9,014 nt of DNA from a virus (lineage: Duplodnaviria; Heunggongvirae; Uroviricota; Caudoviricetes), in IMG/VR virus record IMGVR_UViG_2636415610_000010; one strand, 5' to 3'. Under the pieces are notes generated by a model. The model ran no database searches. It was not told where the DNA came from and saw nothing but the letters and a program-made list of their open reading frames with translations. How positions within the stretch are numbered: the stretch's first letter is position 1; each line of letters begins with the position of its first letter. Shown piece after piece: positions 1 to 9,014 of this stretch. The translations under genes were made by a program, and so were the position numbers.

Positions 1-221
1 ATGTTCAGGCTTGTTGTCCTGCGCGCGCGTATTGCTCGTGAAATTGCTGTACCCAATAGTGATGTCCGAAAAAACCTCCGTTCTCACATGAAACAGCCAT
101 ATGCAACTGGTAACTGAACAGACTGGTAGACCGTTCGTTCAGTAAATACCTGATATTTTCGCCAACGAGAAATTGCGTTGGCTGGCAGGGTGCAAATTTG
201 CACGATGGACTAACCCATTGA

Positions 222-246
222 TTCTTTCGAAAACCCCCATTGGGGG
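222..246 (-). terminator. Possible weak intrinsic terminator downstream of the PerC-like gene
   Basis: CCCCCA-t-TGGGGG hairpin at 234-246; on the minus strand it is followed by TTTTCGAAAGAA (complement of 222-233). Short stem and interrupted T-tract, so weak. Confidence 0.3.
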
Positions 247-362
247 AAAAGCCTAACTCATTGGTTTTCCCACAATCCTCAATTTGAGGAATGTACCTAA
301 AACCATTTTTATAGCTCCGATCCCTTCAAAGTGAGGGGTAATTTGCCAAAACAGAGAGAGCA

Positions 363-650
363 TTACTGTCTCTGGCAATCTTTATCGCGATAACGCCTGA
401 AGTACCCTCTCGCTTCCTCATCCATACCAAGAGCCGAATGAGTCCGCTTAACTGCCTGTCTTAAATCTCCGAATCTGTCTGTAGTTGCTGGTGGGCGTGC
501 CGCCTTACGGATACATTCAGAGCGTCTGTTTGCTGCATGTTCACGTTCTTTATCGCCATCTGCCAGCATCATGACTTCTGCCCATCGTGCGGCAGCTCTC
601 CGGTATAGCCCTTTTGACTCCAGCTCTTCAGCTTTCCTGTCCCTTATCAT
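363..650 (-). CDS. Small basic regulator, PerC/Pch-family-like (95 aa)
   Basis: ORF from track; GAGG Shine-Dalgarno 5 nt upstream of the ATG. N-terminal LESKGLYRRAAARWAEVM matches my recollection of the PerC-family signature (LE..GLWRRAA.RW). Family call is from memory, not a search. Confidence 0.55.
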   Translation of the reverse strand: MIRDRKAEELESKGLYRRAAARWAEVMMLADGDKEREHAANRRSECIRKAARPPATTDRFGDLRQAVKRTHSALGMDEEARGYFRRYRDKDCQRQ

Positions 651-686
651 TTCTGCCTCTCAGATTATATAGATAAGCAAAAAGGT

Positions 687-807
687 GTTGGTTCAGTTGG
701 TTCAGTTGGTTCAATTTGTAAAGATCGTTGTTTTTATTGTGTTTTTTCTGAAATATTGAACCAACATCAACTCATTTTGAACCAACACAGCCCAGCTCTG
801 AACCAAC
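687..807. repeat. Iteron-like array: 3 contiguous tandem GTTGGTTCA plus 3 inverted copies at exact 21-bp phasing
   Basis: Directly seen. GTTGGTTCA at 687-695, 696-704, 705-713; TGAACCAAC (reverse complement) at 757-765, 778-786, 799-807. A T-rich spacer lies between the two sets. Sits in the divergent intergenic region between the genes at 650 (minus) and 910 (plus). Confidence 0.85.
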
Positions 808-909
808 AACACAGCGATAGCTTTGTGATTGGCCCGTTATTTTCTGGCTGATATTTGAGCGTATAACAGTGTTATACAGTGGTATACTGTATGGATATTA
901 CTCACTGAT

Positions 910-1353
910 ATGGTCTTTGCAATGAGCAAATCTAATCTGGTCGCGTTCCGCATCCCATCTGAATTGCAGGATGAGTTTAATCGGTCTGTTCTCGCTTCTG
1001 GAGGGGATAAAACCTCCTGGCTTGTTGATGCGATTCGCATGAAGCTGGGACAGCCGGAAAAGTCTATTGATTCACGAATGCTTGGGCTGGTGGAGCGCAT
1101 GGAAAAAGCCGCTGCGTCGCTTATTGCCGGAAAGCCGAACATCCCACCAAAGCCATATAACGAAACGGCAGTTATAAAGATCATTGCCGATACCATCCGA
1201 CAGGGATTTGATAATGGGCGTGTGATAGCGGAACGGCTCAATGAAGCAGGCTATCAAACAAAAGCTGGTAAAGCATGGGATAAAGACATTTACAGCGCGT
1301 GGAAGCGTCAGGGAAGCAATGCTGAAAAGTTATCAGTGGCTCTAAGAATGTAG
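910..1353 (+). CDS. Arc/Mnt-type ribbon-helix-helix DNA-binding protein with C-terminal recombinase-like HTH segment (147 aa; alternative start at 922)
   Basis: N-terminus LVAFRIPSELQDEFNRSVLASGGDKTSWLVDAIRMKL has the strand-helix-helix pattern of Arc/Mnt/CopG repressors. C-terminal IAERLNEAGYQTKAGKAWDKDIYSAWKR resembles the recombinase-type DNA-binding motif. No clear Shine-Dalgarno at either candidate ATG. The overlapping minus-strand ORFs 837-1241 and 1072-1257 look like shadow ORFs. Confidence 0.7.
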   Translation: MVFAMSKSNLVAFRIPSELQDEFNRSVLASGGDKTSWLVDAIRMKLGQPEKSIDSRMLGLVERMEKAAASLIAGKPNIPPKPYNETAVIKIIADTIRQGFDNGRVIAERLNEAGYQTKAGKAWDKDIYSAWKRQGSNAEKLSVALRM

Positions 1354-1369
1354 CCCTATATTTTGATTT

Positions 1370-1747
1370 TTAGACGTGCTTGGAGAACAGGTAGCGTGCC
1401 ATCACTAAAACAATGCCAAAGACTTCAGCGAGGGTTCCCCCCATAAATAGGTTTATAACGAAATCACTAAAATGGAGCAGTTTTGCTCCAATAAGGACAA
1501 AAATCCCATTCATAACTAATAGCTGGCCTATCAGAATGCCGATAAACCACCGAGCAAACATTTTTTTCAGTTTTGTGTCTGTTTTTAAATCTTTTGTTTT
1601 TGCACGCTGATGGGCTTTGGCTGGATCCTCATCATTTAGATGTGTGAGGGTTTTTGCTGATGGTGATGAGCCAGAGGCTGGTTCACCTCTGGCTTGTCTT
1701 GCCGCTTGCTTTAGTTTTTCAGATATAGCGTAAGATCTAGACGTCAT
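1370..1747 (-). CDS. Small membrane protein: charged N-terminal ~60 aa plus two C-terminal transmembrane helices (125 aa)
   Basis: ATG at 1747-1745 lies 3 nt after the TGA stop (1753-1751) of the upstream peptidase gene, so the two are translationally coupled. Lys/Ala/Gln-rich N-terminus, then two hydrophobic helices (FARWFIGILIGQLLVMNGIFVLIGAKLL and FVINLFMGGTLAEVFGIVLVMARYLF). AT-rich coding sequence. Confidence 0.7.
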   Translation of the reverse strand: MTSRSYAISEKLKQAARQARGEPASGSSPSAKTLTHLNDEDPAKAHQRAKTKDLKTDTKLKKMFARWFIGILIGQLLVMNGIFVLIGAKLLHFSDFVINLFMGGTLAEVFGIVLVMARYLFSKHV

Positions 1748-1750
1748 TAC

Positions 1751-2233
1751 TCATCGAAGCCCTAAATTCTTTAGGCGATAACGTATAGCATCATCGGATA
1801 CACCAAAATAGGAAGCCATCATTACTGGTGCATATCCTGCATTGTTGAGGCGTCGAACCTCTTTTTCTGGCATGAGAAGACATGCTGCAAAGTTATTGGC
1901 GAATATTTCTTCGCTGTCTACACCTTGGCTTGCCAGTTTTCCGCGGTAATCAACAAACTCATATTCAAGTGGCTGACCGTTCTCAGTTCGTTTGACGTAA
2001 TGCCCTAACTCATGCGCACACGTAAATCGTTTGCGCACGTTACTATCATTACGATTGAGTATGATTACTGGATCTTGTTCTGGCTCTTTCAGCAATGCGC
2101 CTGAAACATCATCATCAAGCGTGGTTTCAACAACATCCAACCCTAACTCATTGGCAATCCATACTGGATCAACCGGGAATTTCCTATCGCCCCAGATATC
2201 TTTCAAGAGGGCATGTGCAGATGTATTCGACAT
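1751..2233 (-). CDS. ImmA/IrrE-family (M78, DUF955-type) zinc metallopeptidase, 160 aa from ATG at 2233
   Basis: HEXXH zinc-binding motif in FTCAHELGHYVKR. Strong AAGGAGGTGA Shine-Dalgarno 5 nt before the ATG at 2233-2231; the track's GTG start at 2239 falls inside that Shine-Dalgarno. Size and motif are typical of ImmA-like anti-repressor proteases. No HTH/XRE partner is encoded next to it. Confidence 0.85.
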   Translation of the reverse strand: MSNTSAHALLKDIWGDRKFPVDPVWIANELGLDVVETTLDDDVSGALLKEPEQDPVIILNRNDSNVRKRFTCAHELGHYVKRTENGQPLEYEFVDYRGKLASQGVDSEEIFANNFAACLLMPEKEVRRLNNAGYAPVMMASYFGVSDDAIRYRLKNLGLR

Positions 2234-2308
2234 GTTCACCTCCTTTGATTATGGTTAAATAGTCGAAATTTTCACCACTTCCCTTGTGGATATATTTACA
2301 TATAAAAG

Positions 2309-2330
2309 GTAACTAGTCACTAACCAACAC
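2309..2330 (-). promoter_or_regulatory. Operator-like site in the peptidase promoter region: imperfect palindrome GTAACTAGTCAC plus an iteron-related AACCAACAC
   Basis: Seen 75-95 bp upstream of the peptidase ATG, in an AT-rich stretch with -10-like hexamers. AACCAACAC (2322-2330) is identical to 9 nt of the iteron copy at 778-786 plus its flank. Confidence 0.3.
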
Positions 2331-2943
2331 AAATCTTTTTGAAGACAGATGGGGGGTGTTGAACGGTTTTTAAATGATTTCTTTGATTTTTAACAGCAAT
2401 AAGGAGCATTTTTAATGAAATTAGACGTTGATAATAACTTTTTGAGCAATCTTTACATATCATGGTAGCCTTCTATGCTGTTTTTCCAACTAAAAGATTG
2501 GCACATTTATCCGCTGGTAGTGGCGTTTTTTCGCCGCCAGCGCCTCTCTGGTTCCATTCCTTACATCTGTTCAAATTCAGCAACCCTTGCCGCGATCTTG
2601 CCGTTATCGAGAAGCTCTTTCGCTTTTCGGTTAATACTATCGGTCTTCATATTGCCAGCAGCATACGCCATCCGATAATTTCGATGCTACGCGCGCGTAC
2701 TTGTCGCAAAATATCAGGCAAAGGCCAGATTCAGAAAGTCGTGATAACCACCAGCACAACATGAGAGGTCATGTAACGCGATTTATCACACCAGATACAT
2801 GTGATTGGTGTACCCGCATAAAACATCGTCATAGCGCGTCCTGTGCGCATATACGCCGATAATCAACACATCACCACCACTCTGTCTTATGTAGAGAACA
2901 GTTTTATGGTGCTCCCCGCCATCGTGTGCGTACTGGTCGGACG

Positions 2944-2967
2944 CAGTTGCAAAAAATTTTGCAACTG
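2944..2967. promoter_or_regulatory. Perfect 24-bp palindrome CAGTTGCAAAA-aa-TTTTGCAACTG, candidate operator for a dimeric regulator
   Basis: Directly seen: 11-bp arms with a 2-bp centre, in a region with no convincing ORF. Shares the TGCAAA/TTTGCA half-site with the 14-bp palindrome GTGCAAATTTGCAC at 190-203. Confidence 0.4.
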
Positions 2968-3184
2968 ATACCCCTCGCGCGCGTACTGGTCACGAAATTG
3001 GTGTTTTGCTGTGGCAGTGATATCAGAAAAATCTTCCTGTTTCACATAAAGCGGATATGCGCGTACTGTAACGGCCCCATCAACGGGGATCGGATTTGAA
3101 ATCCTGACCCAAGCTATGTACCAAATGCCATGTCTTGGATATATGATGATTGCCATTCTAAACAAAGCTAAAGGGAGGGTTGGT

Positions 3185-3535
3185 GTGAATGCTCAGGCTG
3201 TCATCATGGTTTTCCTTGGTCTGATTGTCGCAAAACTATATCCAGACTGGTGGAAAGGGGCATTAGCAACTGTCGCCATCTATTTGCTTTTATCCGTCGT
3301 TAAGCGATCGTTCGTTAAGACCGTAAATCAAGCAAAACGTTTCTCATTTAAGAATTTAATAAACTATATTACTGGGCTTATTTTTTGCCTTTCAATTTTG
3401 ATCGCTTCAGCTTTTTTGCCCGTATCAATAGCTAATTTTTTTGGCGCACCATATGAGGTAGGTTATCTATTCTCTGTTTTTTGTCTTGTTCTTTCCCTTC
3501 TTTACCTATGGATGAGAGCAAAGAACAAAAATTAG
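3185..3535 (+). CDS. Small multi-pass inner-membrane protein, possible superinfection-exclusion (SieA-position) protein; 116 aa from GTG 3185, ORF open from 3116
   Basis: GGGAGGG Shine-Dalgarno (3173-3179) 5 nt before the in-frame GTG at 3185. Three to four hydrophobic helices. Markedly AT-rich (about 35-37% GC against about 50% in the flanking operon). Convergent with, and immediately downstream of, the gp16-like gene, as sieA is in P22. Confidence 0.6.
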   Translation: MNAQAVIMVFLGLIVAKLYPDWWKGALATVAIYLLLSVVKRSFVKTVNQAKRFSFKNLINYITGLIFCLSILIASAFLPVSIANFFGAPYEVGYLFSVFCLVLSLLYLWMRAKNKN

Positions 3536-3549
3536 CCATCCGTGGCTAA
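3521..3549 (-). terminator. Intrinsic terminator of the minus-strand ejection-gene operon
   Basis: Hairpin TTAGCCA-tccg-TGGCTAA (3532-3549) begins 5 nt after the stop of the 701-aa gene. On the minus strand it is followed by TTTTTGTTCTT (complement of 3521-3531). Confidence 0.6.
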
Positions 3550-3553
3550 CCAG

Positions 3554-5659
3554 TTATTGAGCTTCTTTTTGTGATGCCTGTGCGACTCTGGTGAGCGATT
3601 GTGTGACCGTACTGATCGCTCTGTCATATGCTGTGCTACCTTTTGGTGTATTTGCCAGACGTAACAAGGCATTTCGTATAACAGGGCTTTCGTATGCCTT
3701 CGCTGCTCCGCCTACGGCACCAGCAGCAGGAACAACAAACGCAGCTGTTTTTAGCATCCCCGCTAATACTGCTGCGTTTATGATGCCACCACCAACTAAC
3801 AATCCATAAAGCTGCTGACCATTTAAGTTTTGAACGTTCGCTTTTGCCGCGTGTCTTGTATCGTTGAGGTATTTAATAACGCCGTCCAGTTCCTTTCCAT
3901 GTACGCCTTTAAAGAAAGTTGCTGATTGCTTCCTGTTCCGGTGTAACGCATTAATAAACTTCTCAACACTGATATTTCCAGACGGATCAGTCGCCTTATC
4001 TACAGCATTCTGAACTATGGCTGCTCGTGCGTTTTGCCTACCATTGTCATCCAGAAGCCTGTAAAGCTGAGAACGTTCTGATGGGCTTTGGCTAAAAACG
4101 AGTTTTGTTACATCCTCAGGCGTGGCCTTGCCGCTGGCTATTGCCTTTTGAACGCGCGTTCTTCCCATCATGTCATTGAATTTAGACCATGAGCGATCAA
4201 CCCTTGCCATATTAATGGCTTCGTCTGCTCCAAGATTTTTGGCTACGGCTTTTTTCATATCCGCCGTATATGCCTTGTAGATAATATCGCTGGCTTTCTG
4301 GAGCGTATCTTTATCAACAGTGTCAGATGACGCCATAAATCGCTTTCGAAGATCGGTTCTGTTTTCCCTCGCCAGACGCAGGTCATTTGGTCCGCTGGTG
4401 ATATCGTCTTTAAATTGCTGCAAGACTTTTACCGCGGCTCTATCCTGAGATTTGCCCGGGCGGCTTAACACGGCAATCTGATTGTCGATAGCTTTTACCG
4501 TGTTTGAGAGATCGACAGGGGTATCCCCCATAGCGTCAATTATGCGGTTATATCGCTTTCCTGCTGCCTCAATGAATTTTTGTTGCCCTTTAGTCGCAGA
4601 TTCATAAAGCTGTTTATCAGAAATGCCACCCAGACCATCGCTAAATGTTCTGACTAAATTTTCTCGTGCTTGTTGTTGATTCAGCCGATTCTTACCGGTT
4701 CCAAAAAAAGGAACTCTTTCGCCTAATGTCTGAGCCTGACTCTGCATAAAGGTTTTATCTTTCAGCATGTCACTGGTCATTAACGGCAGATTTCTTTCCG
4801 ATGCAAAGTCGACAGCAGCCTTTGCTTCAGGCGACATATCACCACGAACAGCCCTCGAAACCGCACTCGCTGTATTTTCCAGCCCCTTACCAATACCACC
4901 AATGCCAGCAGAAATTACCGTTTGTAACGGATCAATATCTTCTCCACCAGCAAGGCTGGTGGCTCCCTGTAGTGCTAAATCTGTAGCTGCTGATTTTCCT
5001 ATGGCACCAAGCACCGTTCCAGCCCTGCCCGCTGGTGTAAACGCCAACGCATTAGCAAGAAACGAAGTCAGGTCTTGCGGTGATAAACCAGGCTTGTTTA
5101 GGGCATAATCACCTGATGGCAGAGAAACGATAGTATTCCCCTTCTCATCCTGCCTTAATGTCGCCCCCATTCCCTGGAGAATCTTTTCCTGAGACGCGTC
5201 AGAGCCGAAAAGTTGAGACCATCCAGCCTTTAGGGCATCCATGCTTAGTGAGTTCAATTCTGGGGCAGAGGCGACATTTTGCAGTCTCTCCATCTCTGGA
5301 GTCATTCGGCTTTCGCCTGTTATAGCATCCCGCATCGCAGCCCCAAGACTGGCTCCCTGTTCTGCTGAACGCTCAAGCCCCTCTCTTTGCTGAGTAGCTA
5401 ACTTTGCATACCCTGACGCAAGAGAATTATCAGATGATGTATGTTGAATATTTTGAGTTGCTGATTGGGATCGGTCTATTTCATTCGTTGATGGTAGTGG
5501 ATAGGCAGCATAAAAAGCCTGCTTAGCCTGCTCTACACTTTCTCCGGCTTGCGGGGCCACGACTTCATTGAAGTATTGATCCTGAGCCTGCGCTTTTTGT
5601 TCTGGTGCTAACGCCTGATACTGTGGAGAGGCGATAACATCTTTCCATGCTTTAGCCAT
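3554..5659 (-). CDS. Phage DNA-ejection (injection) protein, P22 gp16-like by position (701 aa)
   Basis: Last gene of a four-gene coupled operon; its ATG overlaps the upstream stop (ATG at 5659-5657, TAA at 5661-5659). Gly/Ala/Gln-rich with low-complexity segments. Assigned by size and order, not by alignment. Confidence 0.55.
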   Translation of the reverse strand: MAKAWKDVIASPQYQALAPEQKAQAQDQYFNEVVAPQAGESVEQAKQAFYAAYPLPSTNEIDRSQSATQNIQHTSSDNSLASGYAKLATQQREGLERSAEQGASLGAAMRDAITGESRMTPEMERLQNVASAPELNSLSMDALKAGWSQLFGSDASQEKILQGMGATLRQDEKGNTIVSLPSGDYALNKPGLSPQDLTSFLANALAFTPAGRAGTVLGAIGKSAATDLALQGATSLAGGEDIDPLQTVISAGIGGIGKGLENTASAVSRAVRGDMSPEAKAAVDFASERNLPLMTSDMLKDKTFMQSQAQTLGERVPFFGTGKNRLNQQQARENLVRTFSDGLGGISDKQLYESATKGQQKFIEAAGKRYNRIIDAMGDTPVDLSNTVKAIDNQIAVLSRPGKSQDRAAVKVLQQFKDDITSGPNDLRLARENRTDLRKRFMASSDTVDKDTLQKASDIIYKAYTADMKKAVAKNLGADEAINMARVDRSWSKFNDMMGRTRVQKAIASGKATPEDVTKLVFSQSPSERSQLYRLLDDNGRQNARAAIVQNAVDKATDPSGNISVEKFINALHRNRKQSATFFKGVHGKELDGVIKYLNDTRHAAKANVQNLNGQQLYGLLVGGGIINAAVLAGMLKTAAFVVPAAGAVGGAAKAYESPVIRNALLRLANTPKGSTAYDRAISTVTQSLTRVAQASQKEAQ

Positions 5660-7080
5660 TAATCACCCCATAGTGAAGAAAAGTTACTGCTGGCTGCTGG
5701 CTGTGATACCTGCTCAGATTGCGGCAATGTCTGCGACGAAGAAGAAGTTCCTCTGTCAACTGCTGAAATAACCCGCAAAGCATCATAAGCTCGACCAGAA
5801 GCAGCTTTCAGCGAATTGAACTGGTTTTCCATCTTCCGGCGCTTGGTATCAATGGTTTTTGTGGAGTCGCCAGGCTGAGGGAAATACATTTGATAATATT
5901 TTGACATTTCAGCAGGTACGATAGCTGCCCCTGTTTCCTGACGGAGTATTGCCATTATTGCGTCATTAGCATTAACAACGTATTGCTGCTCTGTTGGGCT
6001 GAGCGTTAAGTTAGCCAGCGTCCCATTACCCAAAGCATTATTAATGACCGCCACTCGCTGTGGGCTAAGCTGGTCTTTCAGTGTATCTATTGAATCAAGA
6101 GCATCCCTAACCCTGTATGCAAATCCAGCAGCTTTTTTAGCCCCTTCTGGCGACTTTTCCATGATCTTTTGGGCTGTTGGCAAAGCTATTGGACGAAATC
6201 CATCTCCAGATATTGGCTGGTTTAGTTTTCCCTGCTCTTCACTTCCGTCTGTGTAGTATTTTGTGACAGTGCCATCATCGTTTTCTCTAACACTCATTAA
6301 TTTTTTGGCGTTTGTATTAATTCCAGCCGCTGCCGCAAATGCCGCCGCCCCCTCTGGATCCGCCTTTAACATTTGAGCGTACTGATTGTAATTCTGCATT
6401 GCTGCTGTTGGTGCATATGCTGACGTTAACGCATTTGCTCGGCTAATATCCTGCCCTCTCGCCTGAAGTGCTTCGCCAGCCTGATTGCTGCGGATTGTCT
6501 CTGCCAACTTGCCACGCTCAATATCCCGACCTTCCATTTGATCTTTGATATCGAAATACTTCTCATGACCGAGAGAAAACAGTGCCATACTACCAGCAAG
6601 CCGCTGGAACCCCTGTGGATCATTAACATGCATTTCGGCAACAGACTCAGGAGAAATTCCCAAGCGACGCATTTCATCTTCGTTATCTGCTATGAATTTT
6701 CCAAATGCCCCAGTTCCGAGCGAAGATGCGATTTGAGCACTAGTCGCAAGATGACCAATAGAATTTCTCTGGTCGTCATCAATAAAGCCCATCCCTTTCT
6801 GAACGCTTTCAAATTCTTCTGGATACTCAGAAATAAGACTGCGCATTTTGTTTCTGTCTCCAGACTCAAAAGCCCCGGCATATGCTTTCTGAAACTCTGC
6901 TTTACGCTGTTGTTGACGTGCCTGCTGATTAATCTCAGCAACGCCTCTTAGCCCCTGTAGCGCCATTAAACCTACGTTTGGCTGCTGCTGATACTGCACA
7001 GGCTGAGGAACGGAAGAACGAGGAGCATTATCATTTTGCGGTGCCATGCTAGGCAGCCCGCCAAGTTGCCATGTCGCCAT
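5659..7080 (-). CDS. Phage DNA-ejection protein, P22 gp20-like by position and size (473 aa vs 471 aa)
   Basis: TAATG start/stop overlap with the upstream gene at 7078-7082. Gln-rich N-terminus (MATWQLGG...). Confidence 0.6.
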   Translation of the reverse strand: MATWQLGGLPSMAPQNDNAPRSSVPQPVQYQQQPNVGLMALQGLRGVAEINQQARQQQRKAEFQKAYAGAFESGDRNKMRSLISEYPEEFESVQKGMGFIDDDQRNSIGHLATSAQIASSLGTGAFGKFIADNEDEMRRLGISPESVAEMHVNDPQGFQRLAGSMALFSLGHEKYFDIKDQMEGRDIERGKLAETIRSNQAGEALQARGQDISRANALTSAYAPTAAMQNYNQYAQMLKADPEGAAAFAAAAGINTNAKKLMSVRENDDGTVTKYYTDGSEEQGKLNQPISGDGFRPIALPTAQKIMEKSPEGAKKAAGFAYRVRDALDSIDTLKDQLSPQRVAVINNALGNGTLANLTLSPTEQQYVVNANDAIMAILRQETGAAIVPAEMSKYYQMYFPQPGDSTKTIDTKRRKMENQFNSLKAASGRAYDALRVISAVDRGTSSSSQTLPQSEQVSQPAASSNFSSLWGD

Positions 7081-7757
7081 TAGAATCCAAGCCCCCCAAC
7101 AAGACCAATAAGCCCACCACCAATAGCGCCGGCCGCAGTTCCTATTCCAGGAACAACGGAACCAAGTTGCGCACCCGCTAAAGCGCCTGATGCTGCCCCA
7201 CCAATACCACGCGCAAGACTGGATGGCTGCTGCGCCTGACCTGCACGAATAGCGCCAAGCCCCTGCAAGAGTTGTCCGGTATTATTGGCGTAGTTTTGCC
7301 CTGCCGTTGCCTGCCCTGATGCCGCATTCATCCCGACATTTAGCAGGTTTCCATAATTTTGCATTTGCCCACTAAGCCAATTGTTATAAAGCATGGGCGC
7401 AATGGAAGATAACTGGTTACTGGTAGCTGTTGAGCCAAGCCCCCCGGTAGCTTCTGCTGAGACAAGGTTCTGATAACGGGCCTGATCTGCCTGTGTTTTA
7501 TATAAACCAGAACCAAAGAAATCATTCGCGGCTTTATTCTGCCCTTCCAGAGTCATCAGTCCTTGTAGTTGTTGTAAAGCAGGCAATCCGACTTCTGCAT
7601 ACGGCTTGAGATTATTCATCACCGTATTCCACTGCTCGCGCTGCAAATCAATTGCCTGCTGCTGGGCCTTCGCCTGAGCTTTAGAGGCACCACCATCACC
7701 GCCTTTTTCGTATACGGCACGATTGAGATGTTTATGAGCTATATGGGTAATTAACAT
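7080..7757 (-). CDS. Phage DNA-ejection protein, P22 gp7-like by position and size (225 aa vs 229 aa)
   Basis: Start overlaps the end of the 153-aa gene. C-terminus is a Gly-rich hydrophobic tail (GIGGAASGALAGAQLGSVVPGIGTAAGAIGGGLIGLVGGLGF), consistent with a membrane-inserting virion protein. Confidence 0.6.
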   Translation of the reverse strand: MLITHIAHKHLNRAVYEKGGDGGASKAQAKAQQQAIDLQREQWNTVMNNLKPYAEVGLPALQQLQGLMTLEGQNKAANDFFGSGLYKTQADQARYQNLVSAEATGGLGSTATSNQLSSIAPMLYNNWLSGQMQNYGNLLNVGMNAASGQATAGQNYANNTGQLLQGLGAIRAGQAQQPSSLARGIGGAASGALAGAQLGSVVPGIGTAAGAIGGGLIGLVGGLGF

Positions 7758-8212
7758 TCGCTGAATTCCTTATATTGTTGCCGAGTTAACTGATAAAGCG
7801 TTACGCCGACGGGTTTACCACATCTGATATAAGCATCATCAAGGTGACCAACACGGGTAGCGCCAAGCAAACGGATAATTGCCCGTCCGTATTTCGTGGT
7901 GTCAGGAACCATAGTGATGCTGTTAAGGAATGGTGAGTTTTCGAGAAGCCATTTGCAGAATAATCGATGTCCTTGCAGTGCATATTCACCACGGAATCCG
8001 GGGTCGTACACCGCATGGCATTCAACAACGCTATGCCAGAAGTTACGCACTTCATGAACGCCAGCCAGCACTAATCCTTCGTAGATGCCGAGATATACCG
8101 CATCAGGCTTGATGTAGTACGTGTGCCCCGGCTCAACAATATTTTCGGTATTGCCTGGCTCGTTAAGAAAGGCCTGTAATCGCACAGGGTTATCAATAAA
8201 TTTTAGTTCCAT
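7751..8212 (-). CDS. Phage protein at the P22 gp14 position (153 aa), function unknown
   Basis: First sizeable gene of the coupled operon; weak GGATGG Shine-Dalgarno 6 nt before the ATG. No motif I can name with confidence. Confidence 0.6.
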   Translation of the reverse strand: MELKFIDNPVRLQAFLNEPGNTENIVEPGHTYYIKPDAVYLGIYEGLVLAGVHEVRNFWHSVVECHAVYDPGFRGEYALQGHRLFCKWLLENSPFLNSITMVPDTTKYGRAIIRLLGATRVGHLDDAYIRCGKPVGVTLYQLTRQQYKEFSEC

Positions 8213-8228
8213 GCGATGCCATCCATTT

Positions 8229-8390
8229 TCACATACAGCCTGCCAGCGCCTTATCTATTAACCCTCGTGCAATTTCATGCAGAGTTGGCGCTACTCCAAT
8301 TCCTGATTTTTTACGCTGCTCTTCCTGAATTTTCTTTATCGCTTCCATTTGCTTCTCACTTATCAATACCGGCTTTACTGAAATAGCCAT
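8229..8390 (-). CDS. Small ORF, 53 aa (MAISVKPVLISEKQMEAIKKIQEEQRKKSGIGVAPTLHEIARGLIDKALAGCM), possible ribbon-helix-helix-like protein
   Basis: Below the track's length cutoff. Strong AGGGGG Shine-Dalgarno 4-5 nt before the ATG at 8390-8388. Stop lies 16 nt before the 153-aa gene start. Short strand-like stretch followed by two helical segments. Confidence 0.5.
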   Translation of the reverse strand: MAISVKPVLISEKQMEAIKKIQEEQRKKSGIGVAPTLHEIARGLIDKALAGCM

Positions 8391-8403
8391 AACGCCCCCT
8401 TAG

Positions 8404-8429
8404 AACTGTATAAAACAACAGTTATTATA
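8404..8429 (-). promoter_or_regulatory. Consensus -10 hexamer with an overlapping LexA-box-like site upstream of the 53-aa ORF
   Basis: Minus strand carries TATAAT (complement of 8424-8429) followed directly by AACTGTTGTTTTATACAGTT (8423-8404), which fits CTGT-N8-ACAG with an AT-rich spacer and resembles the umuDC box as I recall it. No good -35 hexamer. Confidence 0.35.
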
Positions 8430-8485
8430 GTTTCACAAATCGCAATATTCATCATCGTAATTGCAAAATATGAAACAAATAGCAC

Positions 8486-8518
8486 AAAAAAATGCCACCG
8501 CTCAGTAGCTGGTGGCAT
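8486..8518 (-). terminator. Intrinsic terminator for minus-strand transcription entering from the right
   Basis: Stem TGCCACC / GGTGGCA (8493-8499 and 8511-8517) with an 11-nt loop; on the minus strand it is followed by seven T residues (complement of 8486-8492). Confidence 0.55.
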
Positions 8519-8750
8519 CGTTCTGTGTGTCAGGTTTTGACAGGTTTTTTATGGACTCTAAAAACTATATTTATGGTGTCGCATTACTCTTCACGGCAGG
8601 CGCTTTTCAGTTCTGCCCTTGCTTCTGGCTCCATTGGTAATTTGATTCGCGATCAGCTATGCGGATGGTTTGCTGAACAGGCATAACAACTTCTCAGAGG
8701 CTGTTTTCTGAACTACGAAAATTTCGTAGTGCTCACTTTCAAAAACGTCA

Positions 8751-9014
8751 TGAACCGCCCCGGGAATCCTGGAGACTAAACTTCCTGAGAAAGAGGTAAA
8801 CAGGATGACTAAAAATACTCGTTTTTCCCCTGAAGCCCGTCAACGGGCAGTACGTATGGTTCTGGAAAGTCAGGGCGAATATGACTCACAATGGGCGACA
8901 ATTTGTTCCATTGCTCCAAAGATTGGCTGTACGCCGGAGACTCTGCGTGTCTGGGTTCGCCAGCATGAGCGGGATACCGGGGGCGGTGATGGTGGGCTCA
9001 CCACCGCTGAACGT
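8751..9014 (+). mobile_element. Left end of an IS3-family insertion sequence, IS629/IS1203-like; continues beyond the window
   Basis: Terminus TGAACCGCCCCGGGAATCCTGGAGACTAAACTTCC... begins with TG as IS3-family ends do and matches my recollection of the IS629 left end; orfA starts 54 bp inside. Confidence 0.8.
8805..9014 (+). CDS. IS3-family transposase OrfA (IS629-type), N-terminal 70 aa; truncated by the window edge
   Basis: Translation [70 protein letters not shown] is the HTH-containing OrfA I recognise from IS629-type elements. GAGG Shine-Dalgarno upstream. Confidence 0.85.

Follow-up and report, generated by a model that had tools for sequence, protein, structure and literature searches.

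What does a metallopeptidase of the ImmA/IrrE type do when it stands next to a membrane protein instead of a repressor? This question is raised by a 9,014-nt stretch of DNA filed as a Caudoviricetes sequence (IMG/VR record IMGVR_UViG_2636415610_000010; hereafter the window), in which two open reading frames (ORFs), both confirmed on the minus strand, encode a 160-aa protease and a 125-aa membrane protein. A sequence-only reading of this locus had offered two hypotheses: (a) a protease-type antirepressor acting in trans on a prophage repressor, or (b) a two-gene abortive-infection or exclusion module consisting of a protease sensor and a membrane effector. Our analysis indicates that the pair, homologous to a characterised pair of Gordonia phage Kita, is probably a Rosmer-type toxin-antitoxin/abortive-infection module of the RmrA_D25:RmrT_D5 subclass, and that an EcCIMP1-like phage-inducible chromosomal island (PICI) of Escherichia coli has it as cargo.

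To begin with the protease, its ORF is listed as 1751..2239 with a GTG start; because this GTG overlaps the Shine-Dalgarno sequence, we place the start at the ATG at 2233, yielding 160 aa, the length likewise given in the RefSeq annotation (WP_000072645.1). The minus strand at this position reads AAAGGAGGTGAACATG, bearing out the near-consensus Shine-Dalgarno sequence described earlier (coordinates of all features are collected in Table 1). The protein matches Pfam Peptidase_M78 (PF06114) over profile positions 2-123 of 123 (E 9.6e-20, 71.1 bits against a cut-off of 22) and PHROG 87, “metallo-protease” (E 1.3e-25). Among PADLOC models capP scores best (E 4.9e-25), followed by RmrA models (9e-14 and weaker), which are 357-400 positions long and cover the protein by their protease part only (~165-292). 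The active-site residues H74-E75-x-x-H78 and E109 are unvarying in 48 homologues of 48-86% identity. An AlphaFold2 model (predicted local distance difference test, pLDDT, 87.6) was compared with PDB structures via Foldseek; the best fold is that of CapP (7T5T; E 2.4e-7, query-normalised TM-score 0.69), which is also matched by sequence, with IrrE/PprI as a further match (E 1e-5), and the model superposes on the protease core only of these and related structures. By profile, active site and fold, the protein belongs to the Peptidase_M78 (ImmA/IrrE) superfamily, and the earlier classification stands the profile search that it had itself named as a possible refutation.

The protein is confined to this core. 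No C-terminal sensor domain is present, as matches span capP positions 5-150 of 242 and 7T5T residues 66-174 of 291, nor does the 160-aa protein contain a helix-turn-helix (HTH) domain. ImmA/ImmR of ICEBs1, IrrE/DdrO of Deinococcus and the regulators CapP/CapH of cyclic oligonucleotide-based antiphage signalling systems (CBASS) share the protease fold and the HEXXH...E active site with it, CapP being the closest in both PDB and PADLOC. Unlike the 160-aa protease, however, ImmA, IrrE and CapP measure ~240-290 aa and end in a sensor domain (GAF-like in IrrE and CapP), and they control transcription via an adjacent XRE-type repressor substrate, whereas the conserved partner here is a membrane protein. 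A Pfam search for HTH domains in ORFs of at least 40 aa within 2240-3165 and in the flanking genes found none, and the same holds for the ORFs of 910-3535, in agreement with the earlier observation that no HTH repressor adjoins the peptidase. A regulator pair of the ImmA/ImmR, IrrE/DdrO or CapP/CapH type was ruled out, as neither an HTH substrate nor a sensor domain is present; identity with CapP was likewise rejected, there being no CapH, no CBASS and no C-terminal domain.

The membrane protein (WP_000204054.1) was described earlier as having a charged N-terminal domain and two transmembrane helices, and both features were recovered. Residues 1-62 form a basic tail with 14 K/R versus 7 D/E, followed by two hydrophobic helices joined by a short loop; AlphaFold2 predicts helices at residues 42-87 and 95-122, with a pLDDT of 73-86 over the membrane part and low confidence for the tail. 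Because basic residues lie at both ends, the topology is N-in/C-in, placing the tail on the cytoplasmic side, where the protease is. Strong conservation within the family is found in the C-terminal hairpin (D57, L60, K61/K62, A65, Q75, N80, G104, T105, E108, G111), unlike the N-tail, which is variable. The protein matches PHROG 5346 (E 6.7e-23), and searches of Pfam, PADLOC and NCBIfam returned no match.

Both genes are strictly coupled. Their junction on the minus strand reads ...CGA TGA gta ATG ACG, as expected for the translational coupling proposed earlier from the 3-nt gap, and the junction is similarly tight in homologous loci, varying between a 4-nt overlap and a 9-nt gap. Of 5426 complete E. 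coli genomes, 69 contain the two genes, in each case on the chromosome, in a single copy and with an identity of 99.5% or more. Beyond E. coli, homologues of the membrane protein were found in Pectobacterium, Serratia, Plesiomonas, Methylobacter and many metagenomes, and a profile search against 1.84 billion cluster representatives (50% identity) yielded 1480 clusters at E<=1e-3, of which 327 remain at E<=1e-10. Every family-member locus inspected that includes upstream sequence carries a Peptidase_M78 gene of 160-170 aa directly upstream on the same strand, as do all IMG/VR contigs with a true family member (13/13). Conversely, when distant protease homologues were taken as anchors, the same downstream partner was recovered in Pseudoalteromonas and in an actinobacterial-type contig. 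An HTH gene was not found as a conserved neighbour in the homologous loci examined. In loci L015-L018 (~5510-6200 in L015) an intact protease gene adjoins a toxin ORF broken into two frames. The toxin has apparently decayed first, which would make sense were the membrane protein the harmful member of the pair.

The coupled pair occurs in diverse contexts. In Plesiomonas it is part of the cargo of a P4/PICI-like element (with AlpA, Bro-N, Ash and a DUF927 primase), in a metagenome contig it adjoins an AbiEii-like gene, and further copies reside in a lambdoid prophage context and in an actinophage-like contig. In Methylobacter and a Methylococcaceae metagenome contig, the pair sits between a cysD-like (PAPS_reduct, 302 aa) and a cysN-like gene (GTP_EFTU, 541 aa). 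At this site (L005/L006, 5512-6348; L010, 5497-6348) the upstream spacer is only ~60 nt and the pair is probably read through from the host operon. A different arrangement is found at the cargo end of the Peduovirus P2 variant NC_070905 (L022), where a related short M78 protease (36% identity, 2998-3483) has a different 159-aa partner (PHROG 8096, 3695-4174) downstream, across a gap of 212 nt, suggesting that partners are exchanged on a common short-protease scaffold.

A functional precedent was reached via the protease alone: the phage collection yielded nothing to megablast with the whole cassette described below, nor to tblastn with either the membrane protein or an actinobacterial homologue. 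When phage genomes were searched by tblastn with the protease, the best matches, leaving aside a single E. coli phage fragment, came from a block of Gordonia phages; among these, Kita gp32 (YP_009301393.1) aligned at 43.1% identity over 99% of the query; blastp gave 43% identity in 160 aligned columns (query residues 2-159; E 3e-44). Kita gp33 (YP_009301394.1), encoded next to it, aligned with the membrane protein at 25% identity across both helices (blastp, E 2e-5), and hhalign of our family alignment against gp33 gave a probability of 85% (E 6e-6) over 74 columns spanning both helices. As a homologue search from gp33 retrieved three proteins only, too few for a profile-profile comparison from the Kita side, an enlarged family hidden Markov model (HMM) built from ~200 members was used instead and searched against ~1,730 six-frame ORFs. 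Within this set gp33 scored 35.8 bits (E 6.5e-10) and its two relatives 46 bits. All matches at E<=1e-3 were either ORFs directly downstream of M78 protease genes or Kita-family proteins, and all remaining ORFs scored below 5 bits. Kita gp32 moreover has the PADLOC profile of the E. coli protease: capP scores best and RmrA models come next, over the protease domain only. No PADLOC model matches either toxin. The toxin link to gp33 is real but remote and is the weakest link of the assignment.

Kita gp32 and gp33 are the RmrA_D25 and RmrT_D5 of Ernits et al. 2023 (PNAS), whose supplement gives the accessions (PMC10440598). The D5 protein combines a C-terminal membrane region with a lack of recognisable domains; in E. 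coli it is toxic, shutting down translation, transcription and replication, and it depolarises and permeabilises the membrane with pore formation; the protease neutralises it partially, with no reliable complex predicted, and the operon protects E. coli against the BASEL phages Bas54 and Bas59 only, hence a narrow defence (PMC10440598). Like the E. coli pair, the Kita pair comprises a short, HTH-less Peptidase_M78 protein encoded first and a tightly coupled, ~120-aa two-helix hairpin protein with a cytoplasmic N-tail encoded second, and both pairs sit as accessory genes where a block of virion-structural genes ends, which in Kita is between tail genes and the integrase region. The two differ in host phylum (Actinomycetota phage versus E. 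coli PICI) and in the junction, a 4-nt overlap in Kita versus the 3-nt gap here. On protease homology, toxin homology and gene order, the E. coli pair fits the D25:D5 subclass as judged by these comparisons.

By definition, RosmerTA pairs a toxin of unknown function with a Zn-peptidase antitoxin, and it is documented as defensive (Millman et al. 2022 preprint). The E. coli pair, as predicted, fits this general definition: it shares with canonical RosmerTA a two-gene operon of a PF06114 Zn-peptidase and a partner without known domains, RosmerTA itself following a logic of toxin-antitoxin plus defence. Canonical RmrA, in contrast, is ~360-400 aa long with an N-terminal HTH, whereas here only the 160-aa protease core is present. 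In the NetFlax dataset, the D5 membrane-toxin node is also paired with Panacea-domain antitoxins, which amounts to partner swapping of this toxin type (PMC10440598). In the listed PanA:D5 pairs of the NetFlax/Panacea network, the antitoxin is a DUF4065/Panacea protein and not a protease. Neither WP_000072645 nor WP_000204054 is among the entries listed in the NetFlax supplements, a literature search for both accessions found nothing, and neither Rosmer nor ImmA comes up in a 2026 preprint on P2/P4 defence hotspots. The sequence-only reading had left room for the pair being a known, characterised system; at the level of the class this is the case through Kita RmrA_D25/RmrT_D5 (PMC10440598), of which the E. 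coli pair would be an enterobacterial, satellite-borne representative.

The window itself is the accessory end of an EcCIMP1-like PICI with P22-like ejection genes, not of a P22-like prophage. Positions 1-8750 are 99.98% identical to E. coli chromosomes and form the end of a ~19 kb island between yicC and dinD (whole element, L001 ~19000-34200 and L002 ~12300-30850). The island encodes, in order, an integrase, a small AlpA-like HTH protein, an AntA/AntB antirepressor, Ash, a TOPRIM/DUF927 primase, the ejection genes, a variable segment and a PerC-family gene. The ejection genes are homologues of P22 14, 7, 20 and 16 by PHROG (7751-8212, 7080-7757, 5659-7080 and 3554-5659, all on the minus strand). 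A sister island is inserted at tRNA-Thr between proA and yagU; the PICI EcCIMP1, mobilised by the P22-like phage Kapi1, occupies the same proA/yagU site and has the same gene content as this sister (PMC11773190). Phage Kapi1 has DNA in common with the window. The P22-like setting proposed earlier is correct locally, as the pair lies downstream of a gene-16 homologue; it fails for the element as a whole, which is an EcCIMP1-like PICI with its AntA/AntB gene elsewhere. Likewise, the pair shares with P22 immI (sieA-mnt-arc-ant) a position directly downstream of the gene-16 homologue and the character of accessory or regulatory cargo, but the host of immI is a phage and the element here a satellite, and neither gene has a Pfam or PHROG match to Ant, Arc, Mnt or SieA. 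It is unusual for a satellite to bring ejection proteins of its own; in the EcCIMP1 paper, “DNA transfer” genes receive only a brief mention (PMC11773190).

The range 1370-2420, to which the sequence-only reading had drawn attention, comprises the two genes and ~190 nt of upstream sequence, and the mobile unit is larger. In blastn against the collinear island of E. coli XH987 (L004), window positions 372-1332 and 2681-6030 align at 98.8-99.2% identity, and nothing aligns in between, where XH987 holds an unrelated 332 bp instead of 1333-2680. A third island variant carries different cargo again. The protease/membrane-protein pair is accessory cargo of the PICI and behaves as a selfish cassette, being an indel in otherwise identical PICIs and inserted between cysD-like and cysN-like genes elsewhere.

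Alongside the homology, strict two-gene coupling, cassette mobility, topology and intact active site observed here, a mechanism can be proposed on the model of Kita. The two genes would be co-transcribed and translationally coupled, and the 125-aa product would form an N-in/C-in helical hairpin in the inner membrane. Unless restrained, it would oligomerise and depolarise or permeabilise the membrane; the 160-aa zinc protease would keep it harmless. The likeliest route of neutralisation would be that the protease cuts the toxin, in its cytoplasmic tail or its juxtamembrane segment, and does not simply bind it, because the catalytic residues are invariant, no repressor or other domain is present, and the toxin tail is exposed to the cytoplasm. 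Phage infection or loss of the cassette would stop the supply or activity of the protease, so that the toxin acts, the membrane potential collapses and an infecting phage could not finish its cycle. Kita-like behaviour in general, proteolytic neutralisation, the trigger and the phage range are inferred for the E. coli pair. In outline, hypothesis (b) would stand, with two genes for abortive infection or exclusion and a membrane effector, but without the protease sensor, as the Kita protease is an antitoxin (PMC10440598).

Several points weigh against this assignment. Toxicity, neutralisation, depolarisation and defence were all seen in the Kita homologue only. Homology of the toxin to Kita gp33 is remote: the proteins are ~25% identical and fall into different PHROGs (13343 for gp33, 5346 for the E. 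coli protein), and 35.8 bits would be insignificant in a whole-database search. Neutralisation in Kita is itself only partial, with no reliable complex predicted, and both cleavage and binding are compatible with it (PMC10440598). Canonical RmrA (~370 aa, N-terminal HTH) differs from the protease, which RmrA models match in the protease domain alone, and no PADLOC RmrT model matches the 125-aa toxin. A full-length match to RmrA models and an N-terminal HTH are absent from the protease, and likewise from the validated Kita RmrA_D25.

Other explanations have to be weighed against a Rosmer-type module. The pair might be an addiction module that stabilises the PICI or the cassette by post-segregational killing, not by phage defence. 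The selfish indel character of the cassette, which is also found at non-defence sites such as cysD-like/cysN-like, would suit this, and so would the defence by the Kita system against only two BASEL phages (PMC10440598). We nevertheless consider it unlikely: the pair is mostly found in accessory or moron positions of phages and satellites, typical of defence cargo, RosmerTA is documented as defensive, and addiction and defence roles are in any case compatible. Alternatively, an infection-switched protease could cut the N-tail of an inactive pro-form and free the hairpin, yielding a gasdermin-like, protease-activated pore. The invariant catalytic residues and the long, variable, disordered tail, followed by a conserved juxtamembrane motif (D57, L60, K61, K62, A65), are what such a device would need, but the full-length Kita toxin is toxic alone and the protease lowers its toxicity (PMC10440598). 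Moreover, an rmrA deletion was unobtainable in canonical RosmerTA, possibly due to toxicity (Millman et al. 2022 preprint), and the 160-aa protease has no sensor domain through which to be switched, leaving this pore improbable.

Hypothesis (a), in which the protease would cleave a prophage or PICI repressor in trans in place of a binding-type Ant, has in its favour that the relatives ImmA, IrrE and CapP all cleave XRE-type repressors and that the life cycle of the host element depends on de-repression. However, an HTH partner is lacking in the cassette and as a conserved neighbour in homologous loci, the membrane protein is the only conserved partner, and the PICI already has an AntA/AntB gene. 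Because sister PICIs lack the cassette entirely, it lies outside the core regulatory circuit. In all loci examined, even at chromosomal sites without phage or repressor context, the protease is tied to the membrane protein; this reading is the least compatible with such strict coupling outside phages, and we abandon it as very improbable. The proximity to ejection genes finally brings to mind a SieA-like superinfection-exclusion (Sie) protein that blocks DNA entry without killing the cell, the protease serving its maturation or turnover. That possibility is extremely slim, given that EcCIMP1-type islands without the cassette exist, that the Kita homologue depolarises membranes and arrests growth (PMC10440598), and that Pfam and PHROG searches found no similarity of the membrane protein to Sie families.

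Table 1 Features of the protease/membrane-protein cassette in the window.
Feature	Position	Strand	Basis
Mobile cassette, 1.35 kb	1333..2680	.	blastn against the collinear XH987 island (L004)
RmrT_D5-like toxin (predicted), 125 aa: basic, largely disordered N-tail (1-62) and two-helix membrane hairpin	1370..1747	-	
Transmembrane helix 2, residues ~96-118, conserved motif GGTLAEVFGxV	1394..1462	-	hydropathy, family alignment
Transmembrane helix 1, residues ~66-88, conserved motif WFIGILIGQLxxMNxIF	1484..1552	-	hydropathy, family alignment
3-nt spacer, protease stop TGA to toxin ATG	1748..1750	-	implies translational coupling
RmrA-like antitoxin (predicted), 160-aa stand-alone Peptidase_M78 (ImmA/IrrE) zinc metalloprotease	1751..2233	-	Pfam, PHROG, PADLOC, Kita gp32 alignment
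Shine-Dalgarno sequence AGGAGG	2239..2244	-	read in sequence; ATG at 2233 after 5 nt
Upstream part of cassette, 38% GC, presumed to hold the promoter	2240..2680	-	composition

The cassette is AT-rich, with a GC content of 41% overall and 38% upstream of the protease. In this upstream part, an Rfam search gave no match at E<=0.1, promoter-like and terminator-like matches occur at background frequency, no commoner than in shuffled sequence, and repeats are short and probably due to chance. By the cassette boundary, an ORF of 36 aa (MAYAAGNMKTDSINRKAKELLDNGKIAARVAEFEQM) at 2563-2673 on the minus strand, followed by a terminator-like hairpin at 2511-2525, resembles the N-terminal part of a small-terminase-like protein, probably as what is left of a gene. 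A ~20-nt motif with the core CGCGCGCGTACTKGTC occurs three times (2686-2705, 2919-2938 and 2972-2991) in the spacer between the cassette and the gene of a 139-aa membrane protein, its first copy adjoining the cassette boundary at 2680/2681. This 139-aa multi-pass protein (3116-3535, plus strand) has no family match; its gene, in divergent orientation to the gene-16 homologue, lies directly downstream of the latter, the position of sieA in P22, making it a possible candidate exclusion protein.

On the other side, a 147-aa protein is encoded at 910-1353 on the plus strand and converges on the toxin gene; because it is present in islands without the cassette such as L004, it lies outside the module. 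Its N-terminus looks like a ribbon-helix-helix by eye, with sub-threshold Pfam matches only. A PerC-family regulator (PF06069, E 2.6e-33) follows at 363-650 on the minus strand, and the EcCIMP1 PerC orthologue was reported as a repressor, not an activator, of LEE1 expression (PMC11773190). At the far end of the window, positions 8751-9014 hold the end of an IS3-family insertion sequence (IS629/IS1203-like) upstream of the ejection-gene block, an insertion that the closest complete genomes (cq9, B4103-1) do not have. An 88-bp inverted repeat, 84-86% identical, lies at 680-766 and at the insertion-free equivalent of ~8870-8956 (L001 27571-27657); it encloses the whole block, with one end upstream of perC and the other upstream of the ejection operon, and could be a regulatory or recombination site.

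The class to which the pair is assigned has so far been validated with an actinophage pair expressed heterologously. What is new here is the location on an E. coli PICI and the short-protease/two-helix-toxin architecture as a large, strictly coupled family, which PADLOC-DB v2 cannot call, as no model matches the toxin. The cargo setting agrees with the view of satellites as carriers of defence cargo, and an invariant active site without a repressor substrate points to a testable enzymatic-antitoxin mechanism. Going further, one may speculate, tentatively and with considerable doubt, that HTH-less 160-aa proteases form a large, unrecognised minimal Rosmer-like branch (at least 327 and up to ~1,480 toxin clusters at 50% identity, from Gammaproteobacteria to Actinomycetota and the phages of these), that they are enzymatic antitoxins continuously clipping the cytoplasmic tail of a two-helix pore-former, and that the PICI copy shields both satellite and host from competitors of the P22-like helper. 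If this were true, Rosmer neutralisation and its trigger mechanism would be directly testable in a native E. coli system, and an enzymatic-antitoxin mechanism or a role in satellite-helper-competitor conflict would raise the significance of the pair.

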